From Candidatus Gastranaerophilales bacterium (GTDB lineage Bacteria; Cyanobacteriota; Vampirovibrionia; Gastranaerophilales; JANQFW01): a DNA stretch of 49,249 nt. The stretch lies in the NCBI GenBank assembly GCA_028282645.1, contig JANQHM010000169.1, positions 1-49,249 on the forward strand. Direction: 5' to 3'. The position numbers and the translations under genes were made by a program. This document shows positions 67 to 47,594 of this stretch, one piece after another. The notes beneath the pieces were generated by a model. The model saw only the letters and a list, made by a program, of their open reading frames with translations. It did not search any database and was not told where the DNA came from. Position 1 is the stretch's first letter, and every line of letters begins with the position of its first letter.

Positions 67-142
67 GGTGATGGTAATCGCTGTAAGCTTTTGATATAAC
101 TTGAGTTTACTTGTAAGCGTCAGTACTCAACTGATCACTACC
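67..142 (-). mobile_element. MITE family A, short form (76 nt), reverse orientation
   Basis: Reverse complement matches GGTAGTGATCAGTTGAGTACTGACGCTTACAAGTAAACTCAAGTTATATCAAAAGCTTACAGCGATTACCATCACC. Lacks the internal ACATAAGAAAGGTGATG segment. No clear flanking duplication. Confidence 0.8.
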
Positions 143-239
143 TTTATTCCTTACTTAATTAAAGTCCATTATATAGTTTAGCTGTACATCAAGAGCAGAC
201 CGATGACTCAAAGGTAAAGAGAGAATATGACTTAGCCAC

Positions 240-611
240 TTAGGATAAAAAGTTTAGATTTTTATTTCTTAAAGATTTTTTACTTTGTCCGGATGATAAA
301 ATTTCTTTTAAAAACTCGGGGATTGGAAGATTATCAATTGCTTTCAGGTTTTGTTCCATATTTAGTTCTTCACCCTTGGATTCTACAAAGTTATTATTTT
401 TTGTCGGATTGTCAAACTTGAAAATGAATTCATTCTCTATGCGCTCTTTAAAGAGTTCTTCTTTTTTAGAAGCATATTTTTCCGGACTAAAAATATTTTG
501 TTCAGCCTCTTTGATGGAGTTTAAATCCATTTTATTACAGCCGCTAGAGAGCAATCCGAGTTGTCTGAGTCTTGATTTTACATCATTGTTACTGCACCAA
601 TTCATATCCAT
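240..611 (-). CDS. Hypothetical protein (123 aa)
   Basis: ORF track. K/E/N-rich composition looks genuine, whereas the overlapping + ORF 376..657 is S/L/F-rich like an antisense artefact. AGAGG lies about 10 nt upstream of the ATG. No domain recognised. Confidence 0.4.
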   Translation of the reverse strand: MDMNWCSNNDVKSRLRQLGLLSSGCNKMDLNSIKEAEQNIFSPEKYASKKEELFKERIENEFIFKFDNPTKNNNFVESKGEELNMEQNLKAIDNLPIPEFLKEILSSGQSKKSLRNKNLNFLS

Positions 612-817
612 ATATGAAATACCTCTTTTTACTAGCTCGTTACATTTAATTTGTTAAACTGGACGAAATTGTTTAAACAACTGCATTCTGTACTGATTTA
701 AGCTTTATCTGACAGCGTTTAAGTACCAAGCCCAAATTTAGTATCTTTCTTTGATACAGTATGAATTCAGGTTCTAAGTCAATTAATATTGAACAAAGAT
801 AATACAATCTCGTGTAA

Positions 818-923
818 TTATTCCGGTACTCAATTAAATTTCAGATTACTCTTTTCAGAGAATAGTGTATTTTATTAGTTTTAACACGATTGAATAATCT
901 GAAAAGTATTTTAGAGTTAGTAT
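818..923 (-). repeat. Repeat family B copy B1 (tandem with B2)
   Basis: ..CCGGTACTCAATTAAATTTCAGATTACTCTTTTCAGAG...CTGAAAAGTATTTTAGAGTTAGTAT. The 79 nt at 845-923 are identical to 951-1029. Confidence 0.8.
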
Positions 924-924
924 T

Positions 925-1030
925 TATACAGGTTCTAAATTAAATTTTAGATTACTCTTTTCAGAGAATAGTGTATTTTATTAGTTTTAACACGATTGAA
1001 TAATCTGAAAAGTATTTTAGAGTTAGTATA
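925..1030 (-). repeat. Repeat family B copy B2
   Basis: TATACAGGTTCTAAATTAAATTTTAGATTACTC...GAGTTAGTATA. Full length with TATAC/GTATA termini. Confidence 0.85.
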
Positions 1031-1195
1031 ATATTTAATTTTTCATATCTTATCTTAAAGTTAAGTAATCACTGGTATTAAAAAAATATAATAATCAAAG
1101 GCTTTTATATATTATTTAAAGTATATTTTTGTCAACAAATTGCCTTTTTTTTCGTTTTTTTTAAATTATGTAAAGTAAAATTTTTGGATTATAGT

Positions 1196-1486
1196 TTATC
1201 TGCCTAATTTACCTTTTAGTTTTCTGTAAAAATTTTCATGCGCAGCTATCAGATGAATTGTCACGGAAGAATTATCAAAGTTTATTGTATATGCAATACG
1301 AAACTCCTTGCCTTTATATTTTAAATGATGCGAATATACATCCGTTAATGGTGTTGATAATTTTTCACCGCTATTTTCCGGATTTTTCGCTATTTTTAAT
1401 AAAGAGTCCTTTACTTTTAATCTTAAAGGCTTATCCAGTTTTTTCTGCCCTTTGTCAGCTGTATTTGTTAAAAAAATGTTAAACAT
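1196..1486 (-). CDS. RelE/ParE-superfamily type II toxin; no cognate antitoxin ORF visible
   Basis: 96-aa basic protein. N-terminal F-T..A.K..KKLDK...K....L..I..NP and central G.EFRIAY.I.....V.I..I..H...Y pattern are typical of RelE/ParE/YafQ-like toxins. Confidence 0.6.
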   Translation of the reverse strand: MFNIFLTNTADKGQKKLDKPLRLKVKDSLLKIAKNPENSGEKLSTPLTDVYSHHLKYKGKEFRIAYTINFDNSSVTIHLIAAHENFYRKLKGKLGR

Positions 1487-1651
1487 ACTTAATCTTAACT
1501 ATGTATGAACTGCTTTTTATTTATATAATAAAAAAAATACAATAAAATTAAAATAAAAAAAAGAGTTGGAGAATTTGGATTTTGTTAATATTTGTTTATT
1601 TTTATATAAAAGAACACAAATAATTTTTTTTAGGCGATTTATGTAATTGGT

Positions 1652-1714
1652 TATACTATTTTACTTTTTAATCTTAAAGAGTAATCTGAAATTTAATTAA
1701 AAATCAGTAATATA
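1652..1714 (+). repeat. Repeat family B copy B3 (internally deleted short form)
   Basis: TATACTATTTTACTTTTTAATCTTAAAGAGTAATCTGAAATTTAATTAAAAATCAGTAATATA retains both family-B ends. Confidence 0.55.
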
Positions 1715-1735
1715 TATGTAAAATAAAGAAAAATT

Positions 1736-2440
1736 ATGATAGTAAATAATAGAAAAACCTTAAGTAATAGACGATATAAAGTACATAATCATAATAATAA
1801 GGCAAAAAAGACCAAAGTTGCCTTTAAAGGGCAATTGCTTTTTGATCCTTATATATTAATACCTACAATGGCAGCATATTCTTTGTTTTATAAAGCCAGT
1901 AAAATAGATAGTGAACGCTCAAGGGATACATTCATTGCTAATAATTTATTTACAGCCTCTATGTCTACTTTATTTGCCAATTTAAATAAACTTGAAGCAA
2001 TAACCGCAAGTACTTTTCCTATATTATCCTGTATAACATTGATAGCTCATGCCAATACAAAAAAAACAAAGAGAGGCAAAGCTCGTACCTTTGCTAAAGA
2101 TGCAAGTGCATTGACTTGCGGGTTAATTTCAAAAAATCTGGGAAATCGACTACTTGGAAATATACAAAGAATACCATCAGGTCCAATAGGATTTATTTAC
2201 GAAACCTGCTCGTTTCTTGTCGGGGCATTAATGGCAGCACCATTTATAAGCACATTTGTAAATGACCATATAACTGAAAGAATTTTTCCAAAGAAAAATT
2301 CTCAAATTAACTTACAAAAGCTGTATAACGATCAGTCACCTTATCCTGCAATAATAGATTCTTACAATGTAACCAGGTTTACTTCTCCACGACTCTTTGA
2401 TGTTACTAAAGAAGATGTCACCGATATAGATGAAGAATAA
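1736..2440 (+). CDS. Hypothetical protein, distant paralog of 21161..21835 and 21842..22477
   Basis: ORF track. Shares K-x-x-ARTFAK...G...L/I motif and a C-terminal hydrophobic segment with the 21842 protein (CATRTFAKMIVTTGSGVLARIAG vs KARTFAKDASALTCGLISKNLG). Weak RBS. Confidence 0.5.
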   Translation: MIVNNRKTLSNRRYKVHNHNNKAKKTKVAFKGQLLFDPYILIPTMAAYSLFYKASKIDSERSRDTFIANNLFTASMSTLFANLNKLEAITASTFPILSCITLIAHANTKKTKRGKARTFAKDASALTCGLISKNLGNRLLGNIQRIPSGPIGFIYETCSFLVGALMAAPFISTFVNDHITERIFPKKNSQINLQKLYNDQSPYPAIIDSYNVTRFTSPRLFDVTKEDVTDIDEE

Positions 2441-2548
2441 GATTAAAGCTTAACTTTTTAAAAATTTATTCTAAATTTTGTAACAAAAATGTTCCAAAAA
2501 CATAATTTAAATAAATTATTATGCTATATTTATTGTGTAGAGTTCGTA

Positions 2549-2661
2549 ATAGACTAACTCAAAAATATTTTTCAGATTAATTGGATTTTTTTATTATATT
2601 GAATTTAAATTAATTTTTAAAACTGAAAAAAGTTATAAAGATTTAATTAATAAGTTATATA
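2549..2661 (+). repeat. Repeat family B copy B4 (degenerate), tail-to-tail with B5
   Basis: ATAGACTAACTCAAAAATATTTTTCAGATTAATTGG...AACTGAAAAAAGTTATAAAGATTTAATTAATAAGTTATATA. Confidence 0.4.
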
Positions 2662-2774
2662 TCCTGGCTCAAAGTTAAATTTTAGATCATCCTTTCTTTT
2701 CAGAGTTTAGCTTATTTTACTTTTAGTTTTAACAGTATTGAGTAAGTTTGAAAAGTATTTTTGAGTAAATTATA
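2657..2774 (-). repeat. Repeat family B copy B5
   Basis: TATATCCTGGCTCAAAGTTAAATTTTAGATCATCC...TTTGAAAAGTATTTTTGAGTAAATTATA. Lies 43 nt upstream of hypF. Confidence 0.7.
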
Positions 2775-2816
2775 AGAGTTTTTTTAATTAGAGGATAAAA
2801 ATATAGAGAGAATAAA

Positions 2817-5105: not shown

Positions 5106-5140
5106 AATACTCTAATGATAACTAGTTTAAGGAGTATTTT
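5104..5140 (+). terminator. Weak hairpin after hypF
   Basis: AAAATACTC (5104-5112) / GAGTATTTT (5132-5140) with a 19-nt loop. No strong downstream U-run. Confidence 0.25.
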
Positions 5141-5164
5141 AAAATTATACGGCATAAAAATTAG

Positions 5165-5257
5165 GGTAGTGGTCAGTTGAGTATTGATGCTTACAAGTAA
5201 ACTCAAGTTATATCAAAAGCTTACAGCGATGACATAAGGAAGGTGATGGACATCACC
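5165..5257 (+). mobile_element. MITE family A copy (long form)
   Basis: GGTAGTGGTCAG...GGTGATGGACATCACC. Exact 8-bp direct repeat AAAATTAG at 5157-5164 and 5258-5265. Confidence 0.9.
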
Positions 5258-5428
5258 AAAATTAGATCTTGAATAAAAAGTTTGTTTTGGATAATATTAT
5301 TGATATTAACTGATAAATTTCAGGGGTAGTCGTAAAGGGTCTTGATTATTTTCTAAAAATAGTTCTTTTAAATTTATTTTAAATTAGTTGTATACTTTAG
5401 TTATATTAATATATAAAAGGGAAAAACA

Positions 5429-5779
5429 ATGAAACCATTAGTAAAAAAATTAGAATCAGAATTTCTAAAAAATGATTTGCCGGATTTACAACCTGGTTGT
5501 ACAGTAAAAGTTTTTGTTCGTATTAAAGAGGGAAACAAGGAAAGAACGCAGGGGTTTGAAGGTGTTATTATTAAAAAACGCGGCTCCGGCATTAATACTA
5601 CAATAACTGTAAGAAGAATTTTTCAAGGTATCGGAGTGGAAAGAGTATTTCCTGTTCACTCTCCAAGAATTGAAAAAATTACCGTACTTAGGAGAGGTCA
5701 GGTAAGAAGGGCTAAACTTTATTATTTACGTGAGCGTTCAGGTAAAGCAACAAGGCTTAAAGAAAAAATAAGAAAATAA
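5429..5779 (+). CDS. rplS: 50S ribosomal protein L19
   Basis: 116 aa. [32 protein letters not shown]...[12 protein letters not shown] is the canonical L19 sequence pattern. AAGGGA RBS. Confidence 0.95.
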
Positions 5780-5783
5780 AAAA

Positions 5784-6641
5784 ATGGCCAATATACACTG
5801 GTATCCAGGACATATAGCAAAGGCTGAAAAAAAACTTAGAGAACAGAGCAACCTTGTAGACGTTATTTTGGAAGTTATAGATGCAAGAATACCAATTAGC
5901 AGCAGATATGACAATCTAGACAAAATAACCAATCAAAAACCAAGGTTGCTTGTTTTAAATAAGGCTGATATTGCAGATCCTTTTTTAACATCTCAGTGGA
6001 TGAATTATTTAAAACAAAATATTGGGATGCCGTCAATTGCTACTTCTGCAAGTTCATCTAAAGATTTATCAGTGTTGATAAAAGAAGCTGTACAGCTAGG
6101 AAAGCCTAAAATAGACAATATGGTCGCAAAGGGAATGAGACCCCGTGCCATTAGGGCAATGGTTGTAGGTATGCCTAATGTAGGAAAGTCAAGTATCATT
6201 AATAAATTAATACGCAAAGGCAAAGCTAAGGTAGGTCCGAAAGCAGGAGTTACCAAGGCTGCACAATGGGTACGAATAAATCCTAAATTAGAATTGCTGG
6301 ATACTCCAGGTATTATTCCTATGAGATTAGAAGATCAAAGCCGAGCAGAAAAACTGGCGATGGTAAATTCTATCAGTGAAAACGCTTATGATCAAGTTGA
6401 AATATCTAAAGAACTAATTGAATTATTATACAAAAAATATCCTGAATTTTTAAAAAAGCATTATAAATTAGATGAGATGACAGAAATTCCTGGATTAGAG
6501 GATATAGCATTATCAAGAAAATGGCTTAAACCTGGTAAAGAAGCTGATATTAAAAGATGTGCTTCTGTTGTTTTATCAGATTTTAGAAATGGAAGAATAG
6601 GAAGAATTACTCTTGAAAGTGTTGCGCAAGTCCAAGATTAA
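5784..6641 (+). CDS. rbgA: Ribosome biogenesis GTPase A (YlqF/RbgA, circularly permuted GTPase)
   Basis: WYPGHIAKA start motif. G4 NKAD precedes G1 GMPNVGKSSIIN and DTPGI, the permuted order typical of YlqF. Confidence 0.9.
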   Translation: MANIHWYPGHIAKAEKKLREQSNLVDVILEVIDARIPISSRYDNLDKITNQKPRLLVLNKADIADPFLTSQWMNYLKQNIGMPSIATSASSSKDLSVLIKEAVQLGKPKIDNMVAKGMRPRAIRAMVVGMPNVGKSSIINKLIRKGKAKVGPKAGVTKAAQWVRINPKLELLDTPGIIPMRLEDQSRAEKLAMVNSISENAYDQVEISKELIELLYKKYPEFLKKHYKLDEMTEIPGLEDIALSRKWLKPGKEADIKRCASVVLSDFRNGRIGRITLESVAQVQD

Positions 6642-7293: not shown

Positions 7294-7312
7294 ATTTAAT
7301 AATAATATTTTT

Positions 7313-7424
7313 TATTCTGCTTCAAAGTTAAATTTTTTTAGAGTACTCTTTTCAGGGAGATTAGCTTATTTTATTAGTTTTTACCTGATTAAAGAATCTG
7401 AAAAGTATTTTTGAGTTAGGTATA
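7313..7424 (-). repeat. Repeat family B copy B6
   Basis: TATTCTGCTTCAAAGTTAAATTT...CTGAAAAGTATTTTTGAGTTAGGTATA. Same subfamily as B7 (shared CAGATTCTTTAATCA[A/G]GTAAAAACTAATAAAATAAGCTA core). Confidence 0.8.
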
Positions 7425-7529
7425 TTTGTAAAATTTTTTAATAATTCTATAAATGAAATAACACATTTTATTCTTTACATGTTTTTAAGCAAATAAAGAT
7501 AACTTTATATCACCAAAGGAGTATTTATT

Positions 7530-7916: not shown

Positions 7917-7939
7917 GTTTTTAAATTTATTTAGAGTGG

Positions 7940-8045
7940 TATACTAACTCTAAAATACTTTTCAGATTCTTTAATCAAGTAAAAACTAATAAAATAAGCT
8001 ATTCTCTGAAAAGAGAAATCTGAAATTTAATTTGGAACCTGTATA
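7940..8045 (+). repeat. Repeat family B copy B7
   Basis: TATACTAACTCTAAAATACTTTTCAGATTC...CTGAAAAGAGAAATCTGAAATTTAATTTGGAACCTGTATA. Inverted relative to B6. Confidence 0.85.
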
Positions 8046-8217: not shown

Positions 8218-8291
8218 TATACTGGTCATCAATTAAATTTCAGATTACTCTTTAGATTGAATAATCTGAAAAGTATTTTAGAGTTAGTATA
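8218..8291 (-). repeat. Repeat family B copy B8 (74-nt internally deleted form)
   Basis: TATACTGGTCATCAATTAAATTTCAGATTACTCTTTAGATTGAATAATCTGAAAAGTATTTTAGAGTTAGTATA. Lies 47 nt upstream of htrA. Confidence 0.8.
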
Positions 8292-11444: not shown

Positions 11445-11595
11445 TATACTAACTCAAAAATTGGTAGTGGTCCGTTTTGAGTACTGATGCTTACAAGTAA
11501 ACTTAAGCTATATCAAAAGCTTACAGCACTGACATAAGAAAGGTGATTACCATCACCCAAAAATTTAATCTGAAATTTAATTGAGTGCCAGTATA
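11445..11595 (+). repeat. Repeat family B copy B9 (short form) interrupted by MITE A
   Basis: TATACTAACTCAAAAATT [A insertion] CAAAAATTTAATCTGAAATTTAATTGAGTGCCAGTATA. Removing A and one TSD copy restores a contiguous short B. Confidence 0.75.
11463..11557 (+). mobile_element. MITE family A copy nested in B9
   Basis: GGTAGTGGTCCG...GGTGATTACCATCACC. Exact 8-bp TSD CAAAAATT at 11455-11462 and 11558-11565. Confidence 0.9.
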
Positions 11596-11788: not shown

Positions 11789-11975
11789 TATAAATACCTC
11801 TATATAATAATATATTAACAAATTTTGATTTTAATCAGATATTATAAATAATACTCAAAGTAGAGCTATATATCAAGTAAAAAGTTCATTTGATAAGGAT
11901 TTTAAAAAAAATAAAAACCGGTAAATATTTTACCGGTGTGAGGATTTTGGGTTAATGAGGAGTTATAAAAATTCT

Positions 11976-12069
11976 GGATAGTGGTCAGTTGAGTACTGGT
12001 GCTTACAAGTAAACTCAAGTCATATCAAAAGCTTACAGCGATGACATAAGAAAGGTGATGACCATCACC
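11976..12069 (+). mobile_element. MITE family A copy
   Basis: GGATAGTGGTCAG...GGTGATGACCATCACC. AAATTCTG direct repeat at 11969-11976 and 12070-12077; the last G overlaps the element end. Confidence 0.88.
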
Positions 12070-12077
12070 AAATTCTG

Positions 12078-12135
12078 TATACTAACTTAAAAGTACTTTT
12101 TAAATTATTCAAGTTTGTTAAAACTTTTAAAGTAC
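12078..12135 (+). repeat. Repeat family B fragment B10 (degenerate)
   Basis: TATACTAACTTAAAAGTACTTTTTAAATTATTCAAGTTTGTTAAAAC resembles the TATACTAACTC end of B only. Confidence 0.35.
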
Positions 12136-12156
12136 ACAATTTTTAATAGCAAAAAA

Positions 12157-12915
12157 TTAGAAGGCCATTGAATATGGATAATATGATGTAGCCATTGCAC
12201 CATTCAATCTTCCAATATAATTATTTTGTGTATTACCAAAATCTAAAACTGCGGGATAAGTTTCTCTAATTTTTCCGGTAAGGCTGCTACCATATCTTTT
12301 TTTATAATCTTTAATCACAGCAGCAACAAAGTGATTGTTTGGATTTCTTAAAAGTACTTCATCAACTGTTGATCTGTCAGAACGCGCGAATTTTAAAGCA
12401 TCATGTAGCGCAGCTGATGCATTTGGCACACTAACCTTTGCAGCTTGGTTTAATAGTTTTATTTCTTCAGGCGGTCCTCCTACTCTAAAGAAATTTAACC
12501 TGTCAAAATTTCTTCTTAAATCTCTTCTTAACTTAGTCAGATCACCGCCGCCGTATTTTTGTGCATAAACTATTTCAACAGCAGCAAGCTTCATTGGGTT
12601 TGTTGCAGCTAAATTTTGAAGAATAATTTTTGCCTGCCCTCTGTTAAAAATACCTTTTAAGCCCATTGTAGAGCGTAAGTTTGATGCTAAAATATCGAGT
12701 TGAGGCCTTAGCGCAGGATTGTTTAGCATTGCATTTACACCATATCCACTACCGGCATACCCTGGTCCCATTCCTGCATTTGCAGGTGTCAGCGGTCTTT
12801 GCCTGCTTAAAAAAATATTATTAAATTCAGATTCTATTACACGGCTATCACTAACAGCTCCATATATTGATGCCATTCGTGCCGGACCATATTCATTGTA
12901 AATTCCAGGATACAT
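12157..12915 (-). CDS. Annexin-repeat-like protein (two repeats)
   Basis: Strong GGAGGAAGGA RBS. Two segments fit the annexin repeat pattern (x..L...M/K.....x(4-6)..I/L L.....N.....V/I...Y...YG..L...I/L): LASNLRSTMGLKGIFNRGQAKIILQNLAATNPMKLAAVEIVYAQKYGGGDLTKLRRDL and ALHDALKFARSDRSTVDEVLLRNPNNHFVAAVIKDYKKRYGSSLTGKIRE. Confidence 0.5.
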   Translation of the reverse strand: MYPGIYNEYGPARMASIYGAVSDSRVIESEFNNIFLSRQRPLTPANAGMGPGYAGSGYGVNAMLNNPALRPQLDILASNLRSTMGLKGIFNRGQAKIILQNLAATNPMKLAAVEIVYAQKYGGGDLTKLRRDLRRNFDRLNFFRVGGPPEEIKLLNQAAKVSVPNASAALHDALKFARSDRSTVDEVLLRNPNNHFVAAVIKDYKKRYGSSLTGKIRETYPAVLDFGNTQNNYIGRLNGAMATSYYPYSMAF

Positions 12916-13122: not shown

Positions 13123-13215
13123 GGTAGTAGTCAGCTGAGTACTGATGCTTACAAACAAACTCAAGTTATATCAAAAGCTTACAGCAATGACATAAAAAAG
13201 GTGATGACCATCACC
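13123..13215 (+). mobile_element. MITE family A copy
   Basis: GGTAGTAGTCAGCTGAG...GGTGATGACCATCACC. Flanks are CAAAGTTT (13115-13122) and CAAAATTT (13216-13223), 7/8 identical. Confidence 0.88.
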
Positions 13216-20065: not shown

Positions 20066-21061
20066 ATGAGAAAAAAGAACTATTTTTTTTATATAGAATT
20101 TCTGCTCTGGTTTATGTTAGTTGGCAGCATTACATTATTTTTAATTAACTACTCAGATAAAATTACAATCCTAAATCAAGAACATGAAGTAACATTTAAA
20201 GACGTTGACAGTCTTGCTGTAGGCTCTCCGGTAAGGCTAATGGGCATAAAAGTCGGGCATGTAAAAAAACTAATAATCGATAAAGATAATATAAAAGTCA
20301 GATTCATAATAACAAAGCGTAATGTGAAAATACCCAAAGGTGCTAATGTCAGTATAGAATTTACGGGCCTTGCCGGCTCGAAATCTTTGGAAATTTTGCC
20401 ACCGAACACATCCGGTAAAGCAAAGAATCAATATGTAGTGCACGAACCAATAAGAGTAAATTCATTGACAAAGATTCAGCTTGAGATTATGGAATCTATA
20501 CTGGGCTTTTCCAAAAGTATAAAAGATAGCTTCGGTGATAAATCTCACGCCCAGATTATTAAAGAAATCAGCAATATAAATACTGTAGCAAAAAATATAC
20601 AAGTAAGTTTCAGCAACCTAAGAGTTAAGACAGAAAGCATTAATAACAACTTAACTATAAAATTTACAAATATAAACAATTTTTTAGATAGTAAAAATGC
20701 TAATTTAGAAGGTATAAATACTTTTTTAGAAAAAAATATCTTTCAAATAAAGTCACATGATATTATTCAAATGATAATTCAAGGTGATAAAGCTTTAAAT
20801 AAAAAATTAGAAAAAATTGATTATCCAAAATTTAATAATAAGTTAAAAAATTTTAACAAACAAACCTCAAACCTTAAAACTGTAATAAAAAAGCAATGCC
20901 ATGAGCAAAATTTCTTTCGCCAAATAATTCAAAAGCTAAAAGATGTTTCAAAGTCACTATCAAATCTAAAAAACTTTATTAAAAAGCAAGATTTAAGCAA
21001 AACACAAGCCGACACTAAAAAGTTAAAGCAGATTTCAGAACAACTCTCCAAATTTGATTAA
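20066..21061 (+). CDS. MlaD/MCE-domain protein with a long Asn/Lys-rich coiled-coil tail
   Basis: N-terminal TM helix then an MCE fold pattern (F.DV..L.VGSPVR..G..VG.V..L........V.F.I.....IP.GA...I...GL.G...LEI.P). Confidence 0.7.
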   Translation: MRKKNYFFYIEFLLWFMLVGSITLFLINYSDKITILNQEHEVTFKDVDSLAVGSPVRLMGIKVGHVKKLIIDKDNIKVRFIITKRNVKIPKGANVSIEFTGLAGSKSLEILPPNTSGKAKNQYVVHEPIRVNSLTKIQLEIMESILGFSKSIKDSFGDKSHAQIIKEISNINTVAKNIQVSFSNLRVKTESINNNLTIKFTNINNFLDSKNANLEGINTFLEKNIFQIKSHDIIQMIIQGDKALNKKLEKIDYPKFNNKLKNFNKQTSNLKTVIKKQCHEQNFFRQIIQKLKDVSKSLSNLKNFIKKQDLSKTQADTKKLKQISEQLSKFD

Positions 21062-21067
21062 TTATTG

Positions 21068-21143
21068 GGTAGTGGTCAGTTGAGTACTGATGCTTACAAG
21101 TAAACTCAAGTTATATCAAAAGCTTACAGTGATGGCCATCATC
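21068..21143 (+). mobile_element. MITE family A, short form (76 nt)
   Basis: GGTAGTGGTCAG...CTTACAGTGATGGCCATCATC. Exact 8-bp TSD AATTATTG at 21060-21067 and 21144-21151. The left TSD overlaps the stop codon of the MlaD-like gene. Confidence 0.88.
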
Positions 21144-21160
21144 AATTATTGGTTTTATCT

Positions 21161-22495: not shown

Positions 22496-22572
22496 TATAC
22501 TGCTTCAAAAATAAACTATTATAAGACTACTCTTTCTTGAATAATCTGAAAAGTATTTTTGAAGATATTATA
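22496..22572 (-). repeat. Repeat family B copy B11 (internally deleted)
   Basis: TATACTGCTTCAAAAATAAAC...CTTGAATAATCTGAAAAGTATTTTTGAAGATATTATA. Confidence 0.65.
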
Positions 22573-39700: not shown

Positions 39701-39719
39701 ATAGGGAAAGAATGTAAAA

Positions 39720-40325: not shown

Positions 40326-40337
40326 AAAATTTTTTAC

Positions 40338-41006: not shown

Positions 41007-41047
41007 ATTATAACTTTATTATTTTTTTTACCAGTATAAATATATTT

Positions 41048-41140
41048 GGTAGTGGTCAGTTGAGTACTGATGCTTACAAGTAAATTTAAGTTGTATCAAA
41101 AGCTTACAGCGATAACATAAGAAAGGTGATGACCATCACC
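41048..41140 (+). mobile_element. MITE family A copy
   Basis: Exact 8-bp TSD ATATATTT at 41040-41047 and 41141-41148. Carries the subfamily variants TAAATTTAAGTTGTATC and GCGATAAC, shared only with 41210-41303. Confidence 0.9.
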
Positions 41141-41209
41141 ATATATTTTACTTATAATTCAATTTCATAGTAACAAATTCAAATTTTTTGTACAACTATT
41201 TTATTTTTT

Positions 41210-41303
41210 GGTAGTGGTCAGTTGAGTACTGATGCTTACAAGTAAATTTAAGTTGTATCAAAAGCTTACAGCGATAACATAAGAAAGGTGATGACCATCT
41301 ACC
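41210..41303 (+). mobile_element. MITE family A copy
   Basis: Exact 8-bp TSD TATTTTTT at 41202-41209 and 41304-41311. Same subfamily variants as 41048-41140. One extra T in the right TIR (CATCTACC). Confidence 0.9.
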
Positions 41304-41318
41304 TATTTTTTATAATTT

Positions 41319-41350
41319 TATACTGGTACTCAATTAAATTTCCGATTTTT
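41319..41350 (-). repeat. Repeat family B end fragment B13
   Basis: TATACTGGTACTCAATTAAATTTCCGATTTTT matches the TATACTGGT..CAATTAAATTTCAG end. Confidence 0.5.
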
Positions 41351-41357
41351 CGTTAGG

Positions 41358-41397
41358 AATAAAAATTTGGCCGGAGGGTATATAACCTCCGACCAAA
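41358..41397 (-). terminator. Rho-independent terminator of the SLH-protein gene
   Basis: Minus strand TTTGGTCGGAGG-TTATATA-CCCTCCGGCCAAA followed by TTTTTATT. Confidence 0.75.
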
Positions 41398-41424
41398 CTT
41401 AGGGAACCAGGATATGTGTGAGAA

Positions 41425-43863
41425 TTATTGACAACCAAACGCTATGGATATGATTTCGTTAGGATTCACACTGGATATTAAACTTCCTTTAGGGTTAACT
41501 AAGTAAGCAACTTCTGTCACAGGAACTGCAACGATACCGCCAGCGCCACTGAATACTGTTCTAGCCATATTGAAAGGACCTTTCACCAAGCCGGCTGTAC
41601 CTTCTATAACACTTCTTCCCATAGCTCTGAATTTACCCTGGAATAGTTCACTTCCTCCGGTACCTACGCCATTAAAGAATTGCTCAGTTGCGTTACCTGC
41701 AATGATTGTTGCTCCACCAACCGTTCTTCCTGCAATACCTAAAACTCTACCGGCCAAGTTAAATGGCATTTGAACTGTTCTTGCCACAAAGTTAGGCTTG
41801 TGAGTTTCTTGTACTACTGCAGAAAGAATTTCTTGAGGTAAAACAGCTTTTTGTTTTTCTGCCTTAACTTCTGTGAATGCAACTTTTAAAGCACCTTTAC
41901 TTCTGCCTTTAGGACGAATTACTTCTACAACTTTACCGTTTACACGAGAACCTTTAGGGAATGACATGTTGTTTATTGTAATTGCTTCTAAAGTTTTGCC
42001 TGCAAATTTGTCGCCAACTTGACTGCTTCTGGCTGATAGTTGGTCTTCGATTTTAACGCTTAATGTAGGAGCATTCATTGTTACTTTTTGCGGCACATAA
42101 GCTGCTGCACCGGTTACTTGAGGTTCAGGCTCTTCCAGCGCTAAATCTTGCCTGATTTGAGCTGCCATTTTTGTTACTTCTGCTCTGGTTATATTGTCAT
42201 CAGGTCTGATTTGATTACCGTCAGGTAATTCACAATATAAACCGGCTTTTAATGCTTCTGCAACAGATTTTTCTGCCCATTCAGGAACTTGATAGCCATC
42301 AGGATACTGACTTAGAACTTTTTTAGCTTCTGTACTGTCAAGTTTACCAGGGATAGCTTTTGCTAATACGTTTAGAGCTTCAGCTTTTGTTATGGTTTCT
42401 TGTGGTCTGAATGTATTGTCGGGGAAACCAGCAATTAAGCCTTCATCAAAAGCTATTTCGATATCTTGCTTAGCCCAGTGGTTAGTACTGACGTCTCTAA
42501 ACTTTTTAGCAGGATTTCTTAATTTGCCGTTGTCTAAATTTAAAGCAGATACTAATAAACTTGCAAATTCAGCCCTTGTGATTGCATCACAAGCTCTAAA
42601 CGAGTTATCAGGGTAACCTGCAACTATGCCTTTACATGCAAGTTTTTCGATATCGCACTTTGCCCATAGATTTGAAGGCACATCATTAAAGTTTCTTGCA
42701 AGACAAGCAGCCGCACCTGTAATCTGAGGGGCGCAAGGTACTAAAGCCACTATTTCATAACATGTGCTTTGTTCTGATTGGATTGATATACATTGTTCTG
42801 CTCTGTTTGTTTCGCATTTAGGTACTTTTGAAACCTGTACACCATGTCTCTTCTCTCCGGATTTTGCGCCTAATGATACGCTTGAACCGATGATTTTTTC
42901 AGGGTCGCCGCACAATTGGGCTGCTGCGCCGGTAATGTTTGTAATTGGCTCGGATGAGATTATTTTGTTACAATCTGTTCCAAGTTGTACAATTTCACTT
43001 GAAGCAGGCATTACTATACTTTTACCGCCTATATAAGGATATGCATAAACTTGTCTTTTGATATAGTCGTTGTTTGTGGCTAAGTTAGGACAGTTTACAC
43101 AAACAGGCATATTAGATAATGATTGACAAGTCGGATTTAAGTTTGCAGGTGCCTGAATTACAGGAGTCATCTGCATTGGAGGTACTGCTGCACCTGTGAT
43201 AGGAGCATATGATGTATATGGGTTACATGGATCACATGGCGCAGGGCAAGGTGCCGGACATGTTTGGTATTGATATTGGTAAACAGGAGCCATTTGTATA
43301 GGTTGAGCTGCTGCACCGGTTGGGCACGTTGGGCATGCAGTAGGACAAACCGGTGCAAATTGAGTTATTGGTAATGCTGCTGTAGGACATGGGGTTGGAC
43401 AAGTTTGTTGCGGACATACAGGAACACACTGAGGACATACAGGAGCTGCTGCGCCGGTTGGGCATACAGGACATTGTTGTACTTGCTGTGTCGGGCAATA
43501 TTGTATAGGTGGGCATGGGCATACAGGAGCTGCTGCACCGGTTGGACATACAGGACATTGTTGTACTTGCTGTGTCGGGCAATATTGAACAGGTGGGCAT
43601 GGATATATAGGAGCAGCCGCACCGGTTGGACATACCGGACAGTGTTGCACTTGTTGTGTCGGACAATATTGAACGGGTGGACAATATTGCGCACATGGCT
43701 GTGGACATACCGGTTCACACGGACATGGCTGAGGACACTGAACCTGCTGCGGACAAGGTTGCGGGCATTGCTGCGGACATATACCTTGTGCATTTGTTGC
43801 CGGATTTAATGTAAACATTGAAATTGTTAATACTGCTGCTAATGATAATTTTTTTAAACTCAT
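41425..43863 (-). CDS. Secreted SLH-domain envelope protein with an N-terminal Cys/Pro/Gln-rich repeat region
   Basis: Signal peptide MSLKKLSLAAVLTISMFTLNPATNAQG. About 190 aa of CPQ-type repeats. Three SLH-like segments (FNDVPSNLWAKCDIEKLACKGIVAGYPDNSFR....ITRAEFA; FRDVSTNHWAKQDIEIAFDEGLIAGFPDNTFRP...ITKAEA; VPEWAEKSVAEALKAGL........IRPDDNITRAEV). GGAGG-type RBS. Confidence 0.85.
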   Translation of the reverse strand: MSLKKLSLAAVLTISMFTLNPATNAQGICPQQCPQPCPQQVQCPQPCPCEPVCPQPCAQYCPPVQYCPTQQVQHCPVCPTGAAAPIYPCPPVQYCPTQQVQQCPVCPTGAAAPVCPCPPIQYCPTQQVQQCPVCPTGAAAPVCPQCVPVCPQQTCPTPCPTAALPITQFAPVCPTACPTCPTGAAAQPIQMAPVYQYQYQTCPAPCPAPCDPCNPYTSYAPITGAAVPPMQMTPVIQAPANLNPTCQSLSNMPVCVNCPNLATNNDYIKRQVYAYPYIGGKSIVMPASSEIVQLGTDCNKIISSEPITNITGAAAQLCGDPEKIIGSSVSLGAKSGEKRHGVQVSKVPKCETNRAEQCISIQSEQSTCYEIVALVPCAPQITGAAACLARNFNDVPSNLWAKCDIEKLACKGIVAGYPDNSFRACDAITRAEFASLLVSALNLDNGKLRNPAKKFRDVSTNHWAKQDIEIAFDEGLIAGFPDNTFRPQETITKAEALNVLAKAIPGKLDSTEAKKVLSQYPDGYQVPEWAEKSVAEALKAGLYCELPDGNQIRPDDNITRAEVTKMAAQIRQDLALEEPEPQVTGAAAYVPQKVTMNAPTLSVKIEDQLSARSSQVGDKFAGKTLEAITINNMSFPKGSRVNGKVVEVIRPKGRSKGALKVAFTEVKAEKQKAVLPQEILSAVVQETHKPNFVARTVQMPFNLAGRVLGIAGRTVGGATIIAGNATEQFFNGVGTGGSELFQGKFRAMGRSVIEGTAGLVKGPFNMARTVFSGAGGIVAVPVTEVAYLVNPKGSLISSVNPNEIISIAFGCQ
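43432..43683 (-). repeat. Three tandem 84-nt (28-aa) in-frame repeats inside the SLH-protein gene
   Basis: CPP[VI]QYCPTQQVQ[HQ]CPVCPTGAAAP[IV][YC]P x3. On the + strand, GCTGCTGC[GA]CCGG recurs at 43445, 43529 and 43613 (84-nt period). Confidence 0.9.
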
Positions 43864-44148
43864 TCTTTTTCCTCCCTATTTTGATGCATATATTGTTTTA
43901 TCAAACAAAAGCGGAGTTCTTTTAATAATTTATTTTAATTGCGTTTGAGTTATTTAAATTCCCCCATCGATTATTTTTACTTATTTTTTTACCAGGAAAA
44001 TTTTTTCTTTAGTTAATTGAATTTATGAAGTTATGAAAATTTAATAATTTAATAAACTTTTGAATTATGATTGCTAAACTAACCTAAATTCATTACCCGG
44101 TTAGCTATTTCCTATTTTTTTTATCAGACAAGCTTTAAAAGAAATCAA

Positions 44149-44179
44149 GCAATTATTAAAAAGGAAAATTGTTTATATA
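44149..44179 (+). promoter_or_regulatory. Conserved promoter-like module GCAATTATT-N9-AATTGTTTATATA (upstream of 44307 gene)
   Basis: Same 31-nt module with identical spacing at 45428 and 46667. Ends in a TATATA -10-like hexamer. Lies 128 nt upstream of the ATG. Confidence 0.5.
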
Positions 44180-44306
44180 TATAAAAGATGAGAGAAAAAT
44201 TTAGCTGTTTAATTTTATTTAAAAGAAAAATAAAGAAGAGAATTTTTTTGCTTTTTAATTTTATTTAATGAGAGAGATACAAGATATTTGAGAGGAGAGA
44301 ACGAAT

Positions 44307-45143
44307 ATGGCTAGAGTCGGAGGCAGATCTAAAGGTCGGTCTAGAAGCAGATCTAAAAGCAGATCCAAAAGCAGACCTAAAAGTAGATCAAAAGCGGCAC
44401 CTAGAAAAGCGGCACCTAAAAAAGCGGCACCTAAACAAGCAGCAGCTAAAAAAGCAGCACATAAACAAGCAGCACCTAAAAGATCAGCAGCAAGCGGAGG
44501 AACTCAACCTAAAAAAGGAAGTCCTTTAGCAGCAAAGGATAAAGGTATTTTTAACAGTGCGAAACCTGGAAGTTTTGGAAAAAAGTCAGATCTTGCAAAT
44601 CCGCAATCTCAACTTTCTGATGCATTTAAGCCGGGTATGCCCGGAAGTGCCGCTTCAGGAAGTGGACCGCTTGCTGCAAGCGGAGCACCAGCCGGAGGAA
44701 GCGGACCACTTGCTGCAAACGAAGCTCCAGCCGGAGGAGCAGCACCTGCTGAAGAAGGAGGTGCAGGCGGCGGCTTTGGAGATATATTAGGCGGCTTGGC
44801 TGATGCTGCAATGGGTGCATTAGGATCACTTGGCGGCATGTTTGGCGGCGGCGGCGGTGGTGAAGAAGCCGCACCGACTGAAGGAGGCGGCGGAGCAGGA
44901 GCAGCTCCTCCGGCAGCTGCAGAAGAAACTCCACCACCTGCTGAAGGAGAAGTTCCGCCTGAAGAGGAAATACCTCCTGAATTACTTGACCTGCTTCAAA
45001 CAATAGATCCTGAATTATATGAACAATATATGAATGGAGAAGTTACTGCACAAGAGGTTAAAAGCCTGTATCCCGGAGTGTTTGAAAAAACAGGGGACGG
45101 CGCAGCAGCTGAAGGGGAAGTACCTCCTGTACCCGTCACTTAG
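44307..45143 (+). CDS. Low-complexity protein P1: basic RS/KAAP-repeat N-terminus, Gly/Ala-rich core, acidic Pro/Glu C-terminus
   Basis: GAGAGGAGAG RBS. RSKGRSRSRSKSRSKSRPKSRSK then AAPRKAAPKKAAPKQAAAKKAAHKQAAPK (histone-H1/AlgP-like). No hydrophobic signal sequence. Confidence 0.7.
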   Translation: MARVGGRSKGRSRSRSKSRSKSRPKSRSKAAPRKAAPKKAAPKQAAAKKAAHKQAAPKRSAASGGTQPKKGSPLAAKDKGIFNSAKPGSFGKKSDLANPQSQLSDAFKPGMPGSAASGSGPLAASGAPAGGSGPLAANEAPAGGAAPAEEGGAGGGFGDILGGLADAAMGALGSLGGMFGGGGGGEEAAPTEGGGGAGAAPPAAAEETPPPAEGEVPPEEEIPPELLDLLQTIDPELYEQYMNGEVTAQEVKSLYPGVFEKTGDGAAAEGEVPPVPVT

Positions 45144-45162
45144 AACCGGTATATAAAAGCAA

Positions 45163-45330
45163 TATATTAACTCTAAAATACTTTTCAGATTATTCAATCG
45201 TGTAAAAACTAATAAAAATAAGCTATTCTCTGAATTGCGAAGCGGGAGCGTTAAAAAGTGAAATGGTCAATTTTACTTTTTATAAGCTCATTCCAAAGAG
45301 TAACCTGAAATTTAATTTTGTACCAATATA
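45163..45330 (+). repeat. Repeat family B copy B14 carrying the ~60-nt insert C
   Basis: TATATTAACTCTAAAATACTTTTCAGATTATTC...CTCTGAA [insert] AAGAGTAACCTGAAATTTAATTTTGTACCAATATA. Confidence 0.8.
45235..45295 (+). repeat. Insert C nested in B14
   Basis: TTGCGAAGCGGGAGCGTTAAAAAGTGAAATGGTCAATTTTACTTTTTATAAGCTCATTCC. Internal 12-bp hairpin AAAAAGTGAAAT/ATTTTACTTTTT. Its first 27 nt recur at 49223-49249, at the same position in B17. Confidence 0.7.
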
Positions 45331-45427
45331 AAGTAAAAAACTCACTTTAGCAAAACTAATACTAAAGTGAGTTTTTTAATGAATTATATATTTTTAAAAG
45401 AATTTTTTATTATTTCTTAAGTAAATG

Positions 45428-45458
45428 GCAATTATTGAATAAATAAATTGTTTATATA
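45428..45458 (+). promoter_or_regulatory. Conserved promoter-like module GCAATTATT-N9-AATTGTTTATATA (upstream of 45538 gene)
   Basis: Exact match to both conserved halves. Lies 80 nt upstream of the ATG. Confidence 0.5.
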
Positions 45459-45537
45459 AACATACGGTTTAAAAGATAAAAGTTGCTTGATTTTTTTGAG
45501 AGAGTTAGAGAAAACTTAGAAAAAGAGAGGATTTAAT

Positions 45538-46419
45538 ATGGGTTTACTTGGAGGCTTAGGCAAAGGCCTAAGTAATGGCATCGGTAAAGGCCTGCCTAAA
45601 AGCGCAGGCAACGGATTAACCAATGGCATCGGCAAAGGCCTGCCTAAAAGTGTAGGCAGCGGATTAACCAATGGCATCGGCAAAGGCCTGCCTAAAAGCG
45701 CAGGCAATGGATTAAATTCAATTTTTGGAGGAGGAGCGGGCTTGGCCCAGGGCATTACTGGTAATGTATTAGGCAGTATTCCGCCTAAAGGTACTCAAAA
45801 CGCTGCCCAAAATCCGCCGGCAACAGCTCAAAATAATACAACTCAACAAAAAGAAGGAGGTACTTCTAAAGATCAATTATTAGAATTATTAATGACTTTA
45901 CTCACAAAAATAATGGGTAAAAATGGCCAGGCAGCTCCTAAAGGACAAACTGTTGCCGCACCAAAACAAGCTGCGTCTGCACCTAAAGGACAGACCGCTG
46001 AAGTGGCACCTGCTCCTAAAGGGCAGACTACTACAACGGTTAAACAAGCTCCACCTGCTCCTAAAAAGGAAATCATTACAACCGATAAACCAAGCCAACC
46101 GGTTACTGACGGCAAAACTGCCGCAACTACCTCTCCGGGGCAACCAGCCGCTGATGGCAAAACTACCACCACTACCGCTCCGGAACAATCCGTCACTAAA
46201 GGCAACACTGCCACTACAACTGCTAAAAAAGGCGAAAAATCGGATGATGATGAAAAAACTACCAAAAACGTAAAAAAGACAACTACAACAACTACTAGCC
46301 AACCTGACGAGGGACAAGCCGCTACAATTACTAACCAGGGCCAACAACCTGACGGAGGTGAAAATACTACAGTTACTACCCAAGGCCAGCAAACTGCCGA
46401 GGGTGAAAAGAAAGACTAA
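45538..46419 (+). CDS. Low-complexity protein P2: three GL[ST]NGIGKGLPKS[AV]G[NS] repeats then a Thr/Gln/Pro/Lys-rich tail
   Basis: AGAGAGGA RBS. Nucleotide-level 48-nt repeats at 45570-45715. No signal peptide. Confidence 0.7.
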   Translation: MGLLGGLGKGLSNGIGKGLPKSAGNGLTNGIGKGLPKSVGSGLTNGIGKGLPKSAGNGLNSIFGGGAGLAQGITGNVLGSIPPKGTQNAAQNPPATAQNNTTQQKEGGTSKDQLLELLMTLLTKIMGKNGQAAPKGQTVAAPKQAASAPKGQTAEVAPAPKGQTTTTVKQAPPAPKKEIITTDKPSQPVTDGKTAATTSPGQPAADGKTTTTTAPEQSVTKGNTATTTAKKGEKSDDDEKTTKNVKKTTTTTTSQPDEGQAATITNQGQQPDGGENTTVTTQGQQTAEGEKKD

Positions 46420-46490
46420 AAATTTGGAAAATTCTTTAAGAAAAAGGATATCCAGGCTAAAAAGCCAGGCAACAAAATAATTATACTACT

Positions 46491-46589
46491 TATACAAATA
46501 AATTTCAGGTTACTCTTTCCGGATAAACTCTATTTTTTATTAGCTTTAATATTATTAAATAACCTGAAAAATATTTTAGAGTTAGTATA
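46491..46589 (-). repeat. Repeat family B copy B15
   Basis: TATACAAATAAATTTCAGGTTACTCTTTCCGG...ACCTGAAAAATATTTTAGAGTTAGTATA. Confidence 0.8.
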
Positions 46590-46666
46590 ATACAAAAAAT
46601 TCTCCCTTTAATTTAGGTAAAGGGGGGATTTTTTTATTAATTATATATATTTTTTAAAAATAAATA

Positions 46667-46697
46667 GCAATTATTTAAGAGATAAATTGTTTATATA
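46667..46697 (+). promoter_or_regulatory. Conserved promoter-like module GCAATTATT-N9-AATTGTTTATATA (upstream of 46906 gene)
   Basis: Exact match to both conserved halves. Lies 209 nt upstream of the ATG. Confidence 0.5.
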
Positions 46698-46736
46698 TAT
46701 AGACGTAAGTTAGATATACTCCCTTAAAAATACTTA

Positions 46737-46861
46737 GAGCCTGTCTGGTTAAAAAAATAAAAGCTGGTTATATCAATAATAAAGGCTCATTTACGGACTG
46801 CGATGTTAAAGCTGAAGCGGCTTGCCAGGCAAGGCGATGCAAGCTTTAACAAGACAGCTTC
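46737..46861 (+). other. Candidate structured leader RNA (locally GC-rich) in the 5' region of the 46906 gene
   Basis: Perfect 9-bp helix GTTAAAGCT (46805-46813) / AGCTTTAAC (46842-46850) encloses a GC-rich 28-mer. Outer pairing CTGTCT (46741-46746) / AGACAG (46852-46857). Confidence 0.3.
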
Positions 46862-46905
46862 TTACAGAGAGAGAAATGCAAAATTTTTTAGAGAAGAGGT
46901 TTTAA

Positions 46906-47412
46906 ATGGCTTTAAATGACATAAATGGAACAAAAGGATCAAAAAGACCTTTTAAAGGCTCTGGAAAAAATTCTAGGAAGAATGATAAAACAGACACGCC
47001 GGTTTTTGATAAAAACAGAACTCCGGATGCCAGGTTAAAAGCACTGTTAAACTCGCTTGAAAAAAAGCTTGATAGCGGAGATATCGGTAAAGAAGCTAAC
47101 AACAAGATACTTGAGGCCTTGAAGGAGATTAAAACAGGTATTGACCAAGGGGAAACACCAAAGAATAAAGGACAAAATACAGACAAAATTTTTAATCCGG
47201 GTAAAAGCATACCAAGCTCGCCTTACGGACCTATTACCGGTGTGCCTATGGGTAGAATATCAAATAATTTTTTTCCGGGCGTGCCCGAGTTAAAACCGGC
47301 CGGTACTACGCCAACAGGGATTAAAGACTTAAGCGGAATGGGAGCAATAACCGGTGTTCCTTTAGGAGAGCTTCCGCAAGGGCTTGCTCCTGGAGTACCT
47401 AAAATGGAATAA
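46906..47412 (+). CDS. Low-complexity protein P3 (Lys/Asn/Gly/Pro-rich; ITGVP[ML]G repeated)
   Basis: AGAAGAGG RBS. GPITGVPMGRI and GAITGVPLGEL repeats. Followed by a terminator. No signal peptide. Confidence 0.65.
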   Translation: MALNDINGTKGSKRPFKGSGKNSRKNDKTDTPVFDKNRTPDARLKALLNSLEKKLDSGDIGKEANNKILEALKEIKTGIDQGETPKNKGQNTDKIFNPGKSIPSSPYGPITGVPMGRISNNFFPGVPELKPAGTTPTGIKDLSGMGAITGVPLGELPQGLAPGVPKME

Positions 47413-47446
47413 CTTTAAACCAATGACTGTAATATACACTCAAGCA

Positions 47447-47477
47447 AAAGCCTCTATTCCTTTATAGGGGCTTTTTG
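47447..47477 (+). terminator. Rho-independent terminator after P3
   Basis: AAAGCCTCTAT / ATAGGGGCTTT (11 bp, one G:U) followed by TTTGTCT. Confidence 0.7.
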
Positions 47478-47501
47478 TCTAAAATACTTCAATAAAAAAA
47501 A

Positions 47502-47594
47502 GCTAGTGCTCAGGTGAGTACTTATGCTTACAAGTAAACTTAACTTATATCAAAAGCTTACAGCGATGCCATAAGAAAGGTGATGACCATCACC
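47502..47594 (+). mobile_element. MITE family A copy (divergent left end)
   Basis: GCTAGTGCTCAGGTGAG...GGTGATGACCATCACC. Flanked by A-runs on both sides (AAAAAAAA / AAAAAAAT). Confidence 0.8.

Follow-up and report, generated by a model that had tools for sequence, protein, structure and literature searches.

The Correia/NEMIS elements of Neisseria and the RUP elements of Streptococcus pneumoniae are MITEs of about 100–150 nt that reach hundreds of copies, lie mostly between genes and can affect transcription of the genes next to them. They differ from the repeat described here, Family A, in that they duplicate TA, have longer terminal repeats and are tied to different transposase types, RUP being IS630-like. 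From the same cyanobacterial lineage as Family A, a 187-nt MITE has been described in Microcystis aeruginosa PCC 7806 which is non-coding and mostly intergenic and, like Family A, has terminal repeats that are short and imperfect and duplicates 8 nt (PMC11448079). This Microcystis element has the ends GGCTCTTCG, is present in 31–33 copies and has its parent IS in the genome (PMC11448079), whereas Family A has different ends, half the length and about 10 times as many copies. ISfinder also records two IS6-derived MITEs of 227 and 336 bp, which share with Family A the GG tips, the GGnnnTG motif and the 8-bp duplications, but are larger and rare, and Family A lacks their inner caaa (PMC7986276). 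Members of the IS1 family (IS1, ISAba3, ISMae3) and their deletion derivatives resemble Family A in carrying GGnnnTG at both tips and in making simple insertions into AT-rich DNA. The hallmarks of IS1 are GGnnnTG ends and duplications of 8–9 bp (PMC10425158; PMC6807381), and IS1-like elements occur in cyanobacteria (PMC11448079); Family A, with its 93 nt, is however about eight times shorter than any autonomous IS1. Family A is real and new as a family, while the kind of element it belongs to is already well known. We read it, with a probability of about 0.9, as a MITE, that is, a 93-nt non-coding DNA transposon accompanied by a 76-nt deletion derivative.

The DNA analyzed is a stretch of 49 kb, referred to here as the window, from coral metagenomes; its host looks like an uncultured, low-GC (~32%), anaerobic Melainabacteria/Gastranaerophilales-like bacterium. 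Nine copies of the element had been located in an earlier note on this DNA, and all nine were recovered by pattern search, by repeat finding and with a profile HMM derived from these sequences, the latter detecting no additional copy in the window (Table 1). Eight of the starts given at that time stand; the fourth copy starts one position later, at 11977 and not at 11976, given the duplication that flanks it. All nine copies are intergenic, and that at 21068 is inserted 6 nt past the stop codon of an MlaD-domain ORF (20066–21061). Pairwise identity among them averages 91% (range 87–100%). Seven copies are 93–95 nt long, the one at 11463 having a 2-nt insertion in its left arm, and alignment of the two short copies shows that they correspond to the long form minus the 17 nt ACATAAGAAAGGTGATG, in agreement with the segment loss given in the earlier note. 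Eight of the nine copies share one strand (two-sided p ~0.04, for a small sample), a bias that a palindromic target leaves unexplained and that speaks against the MITE reading. A second repeat family, of 106 nt and equally abundant, is found alongside Family A, and the terminus of a Family B repeat at 11566 directly abuts the right-hand duplication of the copy at 11463.

Table 1. Family A copies in the 49-kb window and the duplications that flank them.
Feature	Position	Strand	Flanking duplication and remarks
Short form, 76 nt	67..142	-	No detectable duplication; HMM E=4.8e-21
Long form, 93 nt	5165..5257	+	AAAATTAG, exact, at 5157-5164 and 5258-5265
95 nt	11463..11557	+	CAAAAATT, exact, at 11455-11462 and 11558-11565
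93 nt	11977..12069	+	AAATTCTG, exact, at 11969-11976 and 12070-12077
93 nt	13123..13215	+	CAAAGTTT / CAAAATTT, 7/8
Short form, 76 nt	21068..21143	+	AATTATTG, exact, at 21060-21067 and 21144-21151
93 nt	41048..41140	+	ATATATTT, exact
94 nt	41210..41303	+	TATTTTTT, exact; sister of the 41048 copy, 69 nt apart
93 nt, most diverged in the window	47502..47594	+	AAAAAAAA / AAAAAAAT, 7/8, low information

The ends of Family A form the imperfect 11-bp terminal inverted repeat that had been proposed, GGTAGTGGTCA / TGACCATCACC (GGTAGTGGTCA versus GGTGATGGTCA), complementary at 9 of 11 positions. In the long form only, an inner block (TACTGATG versus TTCTTATG) lengthens this inverted repeat with 6 complementary positions out of 8. 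The left tip reads GGTAGTG and the right one GGTGATG, both fitting GGnnnTG. As the earlier note had claimed, eight of the window copies are flanked by direct 8-mers, six of them exact and two matching at 7/8. Two further copies are known outside the window, one flanked by the exact duplication CAAAGAAG (in record L001) and the other matching at 7/8 (L009), which brings the figures to 7/11 exact, 3/11 at 7/8 and 1/11 without duplication. At the same spacing, chance alone would give an exact 8-mer match in ~0.014% of cases across the window and in ~0.12% in AT-rich context. The targets are AT-rich and shaped like AAAATTTT. As an exact duplication flanks the 76-nt copy at 21068, the short form has itself transposed. 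The copy at 67–142 has mismatched flanks (CTATTTTA versus TTTATTCC, 3/8 identical), which counts against the MITE reading; a long palindrome, at positions 3–66, adjoins this copy.

Orthologous sites were compared, as had been recommended, in two relatives whose proteins are 75–80% identical to those of the window and whose gene order is the same. Clean empty sites were found at two loci. In the HypF–L19 spacer, which holds the copy at 5165, both relatives (L002 and L003) have a single AAAATTAG and lack the element, and the empty site reconstructed at 5165 aligns with their spacer over the junction without gaps. The L28/P0001 spacer, occupied in the window by the copy at 11977, contains in both a single (A/G)AATTCTG and again no element. 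These empty sites with one 8-mer show directly that Family A is mobile. The spacer orthologous to the copy at 11463 is too diverged for such a call, the four coral samples themselves showed no empty allele, and the element has no conserved synteny.

The genome-wide burst that the earlier note had deduced from the density of copies is borne out by contig depth in four coral metagenome runs, which shows a high copy number. Family A is present on about 230 contigs per run, and in 4/4 runs Logan contigs break at every copy. The summed depth of the element amounts to 10–59 thousand versus 55–70 for single-copy sequence in X1, and to 3–20 thousand versus ~22 in X3, although the estimate of copy number is rough, as overlapping assembly contigs may be counted twice. 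These depth ratios, together with the density in the window, suggest that each genome has a few hundred copies. Against the nine copies in 49 kb of the window, GCA_028280605.1 has one diverged copy in 56 kb and GCA_028277625.1 none in 41 kb; since relatives hold one diverged copy or none, the expansion is lineage-specific. L001, a record labelled Chlamydiales, is the only other one with a near-consensus copy. The copies at 41048 and 41210 are identical except for one inserted base and share a T at 41085 and a G at 41093, each of which accounts for less than 2% of genome-wide summed depth. Rare variants common to both copies indicate at least one recent local hop.

As the earlier note had it, the element is non-autonomous: no ORF fits inside its 76–95 nt, a length within the ~500-bp limit of bacterial MITEs, and no transposase domain was found among the window ORFs. 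The search of Rfam that it had advised yielded no match at the gathering threshold across the whole window; the sole hit, MIR827, is a chance match (23 bits versus a 65-bit threshold). The fold of the element is not significant (z = -1.1 to -2.0). Minus-strand reading of the right end of the long form gives GGTGATGGTCATCACC and then TTTCTTAT, a sequence that the consensus scan scores as terminator-like, and 6/9 long-form copies lie 36–122 nt downstream of a gene transcribed into that end. Both features would suit a selected functional cis element, be it a terminator, a regulatory site or a small RNA. We nevertheless consider such a function very unlikely: the downstream placement is no different from chance, the hairpin is weak (~-8 kcal/mol, z = -1.2 to -1.5), and the short form, which is devoid of it, has transposed all the same. 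Moreover, the copy at 11977 separates a stop codon from a native terminator, which is stronger and conserved in the relatives, no Rfam family matches, and the orthologous sites of the relatives lack the element. Being short, intergenic, partly palindromic and present at high copy number, Family A also has traits of REP/BIME-like sequences moved by RAYT (IS200/IS605-type), or it might be a duplicated sequence that does not move. REP elements, however, create no fixed-length target duplications, whereas 10/11 copies of Family A have 8-bp ones, the empty sites are precise, and the whole element forms no strong hairpin. The duplications and the insignificant fold led us to reject REP/BIME membership, defined by a palindromic unit and the absence of target duplication, and the probability left to either of these two origins is close to nil.

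If Family A is a MITE, a DDE transposase encoded elsewhere and acting in trans would bind and cut its imperfect terminal inverted repeats. In the target, AT-rich and of the type AAAATTTT, the enzyme would make cuts with a stagger of 8 bp, and repair of the resulting gaps would leave the 8-bp direct duplications beside the element. As a side effect, transcripts coming from the right could end at the hairpin and T-tract that the long form has on that side. Most likely, Family A is selfish, near-neutral and tolerated in intergenic DNA.

With respect to the origin of the transposase, the candidates put forward in the earlier note (IS6, IS256, ISL3 and IS66) did not include IS1, which fits best; IS6/IS26 comes second, and ISL3 is a poor fit by its ends. 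The search for the parent IS was negative: no autonomous IS with Family A ends, of IS1 type or other, was found in the window, plasmid, phage and viral collections and JGI metagenomes gave none, and among the matches listed no X1 contig shares 48 nt of the left or right end before diverging into an IS interior. An IS1-family transposase is our best guess, a lead rather than a result and slightly short of an even chance, since GGnnnTG is found at both tips and IS1 insertions are simple and duplicate 8–9 bp, a range that includes the 8 bp of Family A. GGTGATG equals the first 7 nt of the E. coli IS1 IRL. Beyond the GGnnnTG tip, the ends of Family A align to the E. coli IS1 IRL and IRR no better than shuffled sequence does (for the IRL, alignment score 4.0 versus 3.4 +/- 1.5 for shuffles). 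An ISAba3-like repeat of the IS1 family, GGTGGTG..., which makes 8-bp duplications (PMC6382973), matches the Family A end at 12/24 positions in a comparison made by eye. A parent in another family with 8-bp duplications (ISL3, IS256, IS1595 or IS66), or in an undescribed one, is possible though doubtful. Duplications of 8 bp are made by families other than IS1 and IS6 too, and the parent was not found in the sequences searched, so that direct evidence does not distinguish the families. IS66 ends reportedly start with GTAA, which speaks against an IS66 parent. The Microcystis MITE is ISL3-derived (PMC11448079), but ISL3 ends (GGCTCTTCG, of GGCTCTT type) are unlike those of Family A (GGTAGTGGT and GGTGATGGT), and the GGnnnTG tip is described in the literature as the mark of IS1 and IS6 rather than of ISL3, IS256, IS1595 or IS66 (PMC10425158; PMC6807381). 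That motif being common to IS1 and IS6/IS26 (PMC6807381), Family A might instead derive from, and be mobilised by, an IS6/IS26-family element. Members of this family make 8-bp duplications, as found for Family A, and have GG tips, mostly GGnnnTG (PMC6807381; PMC7986276), and MITEs derived from it are on record, as noted above. The ~14-bp repeat consensus of IS6, however, keeps the inner motifs cTGTt and caaa (PMC7986276), whereas positions 5–9 of Family A read GTGGT or ATGGT, positions 8–14 read GTCAGTT or GTCATCA, and caaa follows at neither end. IS6 also moves mainly via cointegrates that need homologous resolution (PMC7986276), a route that would be awkward for hundreds of simple 93-bp insertions, and we regard an IS6/IS26 parent as unlikely.

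Family A represents a clean, well-documented MITE burst in the Melainabacteria, non-photosynthetic relatives of the cyanobacteria, from a coral microbiome, and no description of a MITE in Melainabacteria was found in the literature searched. It does not change how MITEs work. Since short-read assemblies are broken at every copy, the element lowers the quality of metagenome-assembled genomes, and these breaks probably lead to mis-binning, of which the Chlamydiales label of L001 may be an instance. The presence, absence and density of Family A provide a fine-scale marker that separates related coral-associated lineages, and dense insertions beside gene ends could alter transcription. A more far-reaching version, which we hold to be distinctly improbable, would place Family A among the densest MITE invasions known from any bacterium (~180 copies per Mb, beside the equally abundant 106-nt family), with a transposase that is lost or of a lineage so far unlinked to GGnnnTG ends and with the hairpin and T-tract recruited at the 3′ ends of genes as a portable terminator. 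If this were true, transcription across the whole genome of a host-associated, non-photosynthetic relative of the cyanobacteria would have been rewired by the burst.

The nine intergenic copies that the earlier note had assigned to Family A in the window were borne out by pattern searches, by extraction and by a profile HMM. Searching with the left-arm pattern returned seven copies at three or fewer mismatches, where zero were expected, and the right-tip pattern returned seven element ends together with one inner palindrome arm and one stray match, where 0.3 were expected. Extraction of the nine proposed intervals gave plainly homologous units, and the profile HMM built from them regained the same nine in the window (E-values of 1e-21 to 1e-30), with no further copy above noise. 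Mean pairwise identity among the window copies is 91%, with a star-like pattern. Seven copies are of the long form (93-95 nt); the short form resembles the product of a slippage deletion in it, because GATG borders the missing segment on both sides in the long form. In degenerate form the termini read GGTRRTGGTCA / TGACCATCACC. The outer inverted repeat matches at 9/11 positions, and the inner block of the long form, TACTGATG vs TTCTTATG, adds 6/8. Coordinates are collected in the table.

Coordinates of repeat copies in the window and in loci of relatives
Feature	Location	Strand	Remark
Family A, short form (76 nt)	window 67-142	-	without ACATAAGAAAGGTGATG
Family A, short form (76 nt)	window 21068-21143		without ACATAAGAAAGGTGATG
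Family A	L001 (JANQFC010000070.1) 745-837	-	exact duplication CAAAGAAG
Family A, diverged	L009 14938-15031		flanks AAAAAATT / AAAAATTT
Family B	window 819-923		tandem
Family B	window 925-1030		tandem
Family B	window 2668-2766
Family B	window 7336-7424
Family B	window 7940-8045
Family B	window 8218-8291
Family B	window 11566-11595
Family B	window 12078-12141
Family B	window 22537-22572
Family B	window 41319-41347
Family B	window 45163-45234
Family B	window 46495-46589
Family B	window 47879-47968
Family B	window 49152-49222
Family B	L001 2814-2947
Family B	L006 14404-14487

Target-site duplications of 8 bp had also been proposed. Read in element orientation, the flanking 8-mers are identical at six window copies and differ by one base at two, so that the proposal stands for these eight; none was found in the 8-mers flanking 67-142. 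By chance, 8-mers spaced 93 nt apart would be identical at 0.014% of positions window-wide, rising to 0.12% where the sequence is AT-richest. In the duplicated 8-mers, A predominates in the 5′ half and T in the 3′ half (e.g., AAAATTAG, CAAAAATT, CAAAATTT, ATATATTT), and the target is thus roughly palindromic, AAAWWTTT-like, which fits the expectation for a symmetric transposase complex. A near-perfect long palindrome, AAAATAGCAATGGTAAA...TTTACCATTGCTATTTT, occupies window positions 3-66 and adjoins the sole copy lacking a duplication. The + strand holds eight of the nine copies though the flanking genes switch strand (two-sided binomial p ~0.04), a bias that a roughly palindromic target leaves unexplained.

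Comparison of orthologous sites, filled against empty in the classical manner, had been listed in the earlier note as a check that could refute its reading, and it came out in favour of insertion at two loci. Through homologues of the window protein at 12157-12915 we reached two contigs of relatives, L002 (GCA_028280605.1) and L003 (GCA_028277625.1), which are syntenic with the window at 75-80% protein identity; Family A is absent from the 20-kb syntenic stretches of both. When the window, minus the element and one 8-mer, was aligned to these contigs, the alignments ran unbroken across the junction for copies 5165 and 11977. At copy 5165 the emptied window reads ...CATAAAAATTAGATCTTGAATAAAAAG... 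vs ...CACAAAAATTAGCTCTTGAATAAAAAA... in L002 and ...CTTAAAAATTAGCTCTTGAATAAAAAG... in L003; at copy 11977 it reads ...GGAGTTATAAAAATTCTGTATA... vs ...GGAGTTAT-AGAATTCTGTA... in L002 and ...GGAGT--TAGAAATTCTGTATA... in L003. Among the joints listed for the four coral samples, mostly cross-matches between repeats, there was no polymorphic empty allele.

The genome-wide burst that had been suggested is supported by metagenome data. The coral runs include SRR20820733, SRR20820735 and SRR20820739, alongside sister runs. Four coral metagenome runs contain 94-97% of the sampled words of the window, and in all four the assembly breaks at every Family A copy. Two runs each yield about 230 assembly contigs with a match to the element at 85% identity or more. 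Over the element, contig depths add up to 10-59 thousand in one run (X1), against 55-70 for single-copy sequence, and to 3-20 thousand in another (X3), against about 22. These ratios give about 150-290 copies from the terminal positions and up to about 900 from the core, whose depth values may be inflated because contigs overlap by k-1 bases; extrapolating the window density of 9 in 49 kb gives about 180 copies per Mb. From depth and density together, the copy number is, as a rough estimate, a few hundred per genome.

Copies 41048 and 41210, 69 nt apart, differ solely by one inserted base. Both carry the variants T41085 and G41093, which make up less than 2% of genome-wide depth, and each has an exact duplication of its own. 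The best reading is that one of them arose recently from the other by a local hop. Separately, a joint of the type 41140->41048, linking the end of one copy to the start of another, is present in five contigs of X1 and two of X3; since contigs join copy end to copy start, close or head-to-tail pairs recur elsewhere in the genome.

Beyond the coral runs, the exact core pattern had zero matches in the GTDB genome set, and a degenerate version had one among 185,579 species-representative genomes, in L001. This contig is titled "Chlamydiales bacterium" and is the sole core-pattern match in that genome; as it also has both repeat families in common with the window, it is probably a mis-binned contig from the window's Melainabacteria-like lineage. 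The core and terminal-repeat patterns had no match in JGI metagenomes, nor the terminal-repeat pattern in viral contigs, and the consensus gave chance matches or none when compared by blastn with plasmids and phages. As to the host, both the window AccA, at 70-73% identity, and the kinase have their best named relatives in Melainabacteria, Gastranaerophilales or "Cyanobacteria bacterium UBA" genomes. Besides HypF and a group A6 [FeFe] hydrogenase accompanied by NuoE/NuoF-like partners, the window has genes for Rex, Rad50/Mre11, HtrA, AccA/AccD, PrmA, RecR, YbaB, a protein with an SLH domain, proteins resembling MlaD and LptC, and a GAF histidine kinase. An exact-sequence look-up of the hydrogenase matched no record, and a tRNA/tmRNA scan returned nothing. 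The SLH-domain gene contains three tandem 84-nt repeats (43433-43684), and three ORFs (44307-45143, 45538-46419 and 48112-48864) encode low-complexity Ala/Pro/Lys/Gly-rich proteins. Similar 50-nt AT-rich segments at 44134, 45413 and 46652 precede ORFs that begin at 44307, 45538 and 46906.

Family B, the second repeat family, is MITE-like and about 106 nt long, with roughly 33-nt imperfect terminal repeats that begin with TATAC and contain TTTCAGATTA. Its window copies, full or partial, number at least 18, and in the coral runs its depth sums to a very high value. At 11558-11566 and 12070-12078 a Family A duplication lies directly against a Family B terminus, and a gap of 1-7 nt separates them at 41304-41319 and 41030-41047 (the match at 41030-41038 was made by eye); in run contigs, ends of the two families also occur 12-30 nt from each other at other places in the genome. 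Possible reasons for this adjacency are a common target preference, nesting or crowded intergenic space.

A role as structured RNA or regulator was also considered. Rfam, at gathering and permissive thresholds, returned no family and only a chance match to MIR827, and folding of Family A as DNA or RNA gave no significant structure. A consensus scan found the right end of the long form, on the minus strand, to be terminator-like, a hairpin followed by TTTCTTAT; this hairpin is weak (about -8 kcal/mol), and a native terminator just beyond copy 11977 is stronger and conserved in relatives. Of nine long copies, six have an upstream gene whose transcription runs into the right end, a number that does not differ from chance. 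We treat any regulatory effect as incidental.

As for the transposase, no transposase domain was found in the window, and an IS110-type gene in the relative's locus L006 was ruled out because its chemistry is different. IS1-family ends are tabulated as GGnnnTG with duplications of 8-9 bp (PMC10425158), and both Family A tips, GGTAGTG and GGTGATG, fit; a published ISAba3-like repeat of the IS1 family, GGTGGTGTTTCAAAAAGTATGCTG, likewise makes 8-bp duplications (PMC6382973). Direct alignment of the Family A ends with those of E. coli IS1 was no better than shuffles. The GGnnnTG tip is also common in IS6/IS26, again with 8-bp duplications as at Family A (PMC6807381), but the IS6 repeat consensus has inner motifs cTGTt and caaa and the family uses a cointegrate pathway (PMC7986276); caaa is absent from the Family A ends, and cointegrates would be ill suited to producing simple insertions by the hundred, which makes an IS6/IS26 parent unlikely. 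ISL3 ends, of the GGCTCTTCG type (PMC11448079), count against that family. On tips, duplication length and the case against IS6 and ISL3, the IS1 family would be the leading candidate parent, with a probability of roughly 0.45; another or an unknown family is a serious possibility and takes up the remainder after IS1 and IS6/IS26. Contigs retrieved with the left and right 48 nt, among those seen, held flanks and truncated or nested copies and no IS interior, and plasmid, phage, viral and JGI metagenome collections yielded no parent IS.

With small corrections, both the observation and the interpretation of the earlier note are upheld: Family A is a real, mobile, high-copy MITE. Among relatives, L002, L006 and L009 contain one diverged copy in 56 kb, and 41 kb of L003 and L011 contain none. 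Family A represents a new family within a well-known class of element. Because the relatives have one diverged copy or none, it is older than these lineages and expanded in that of the window.
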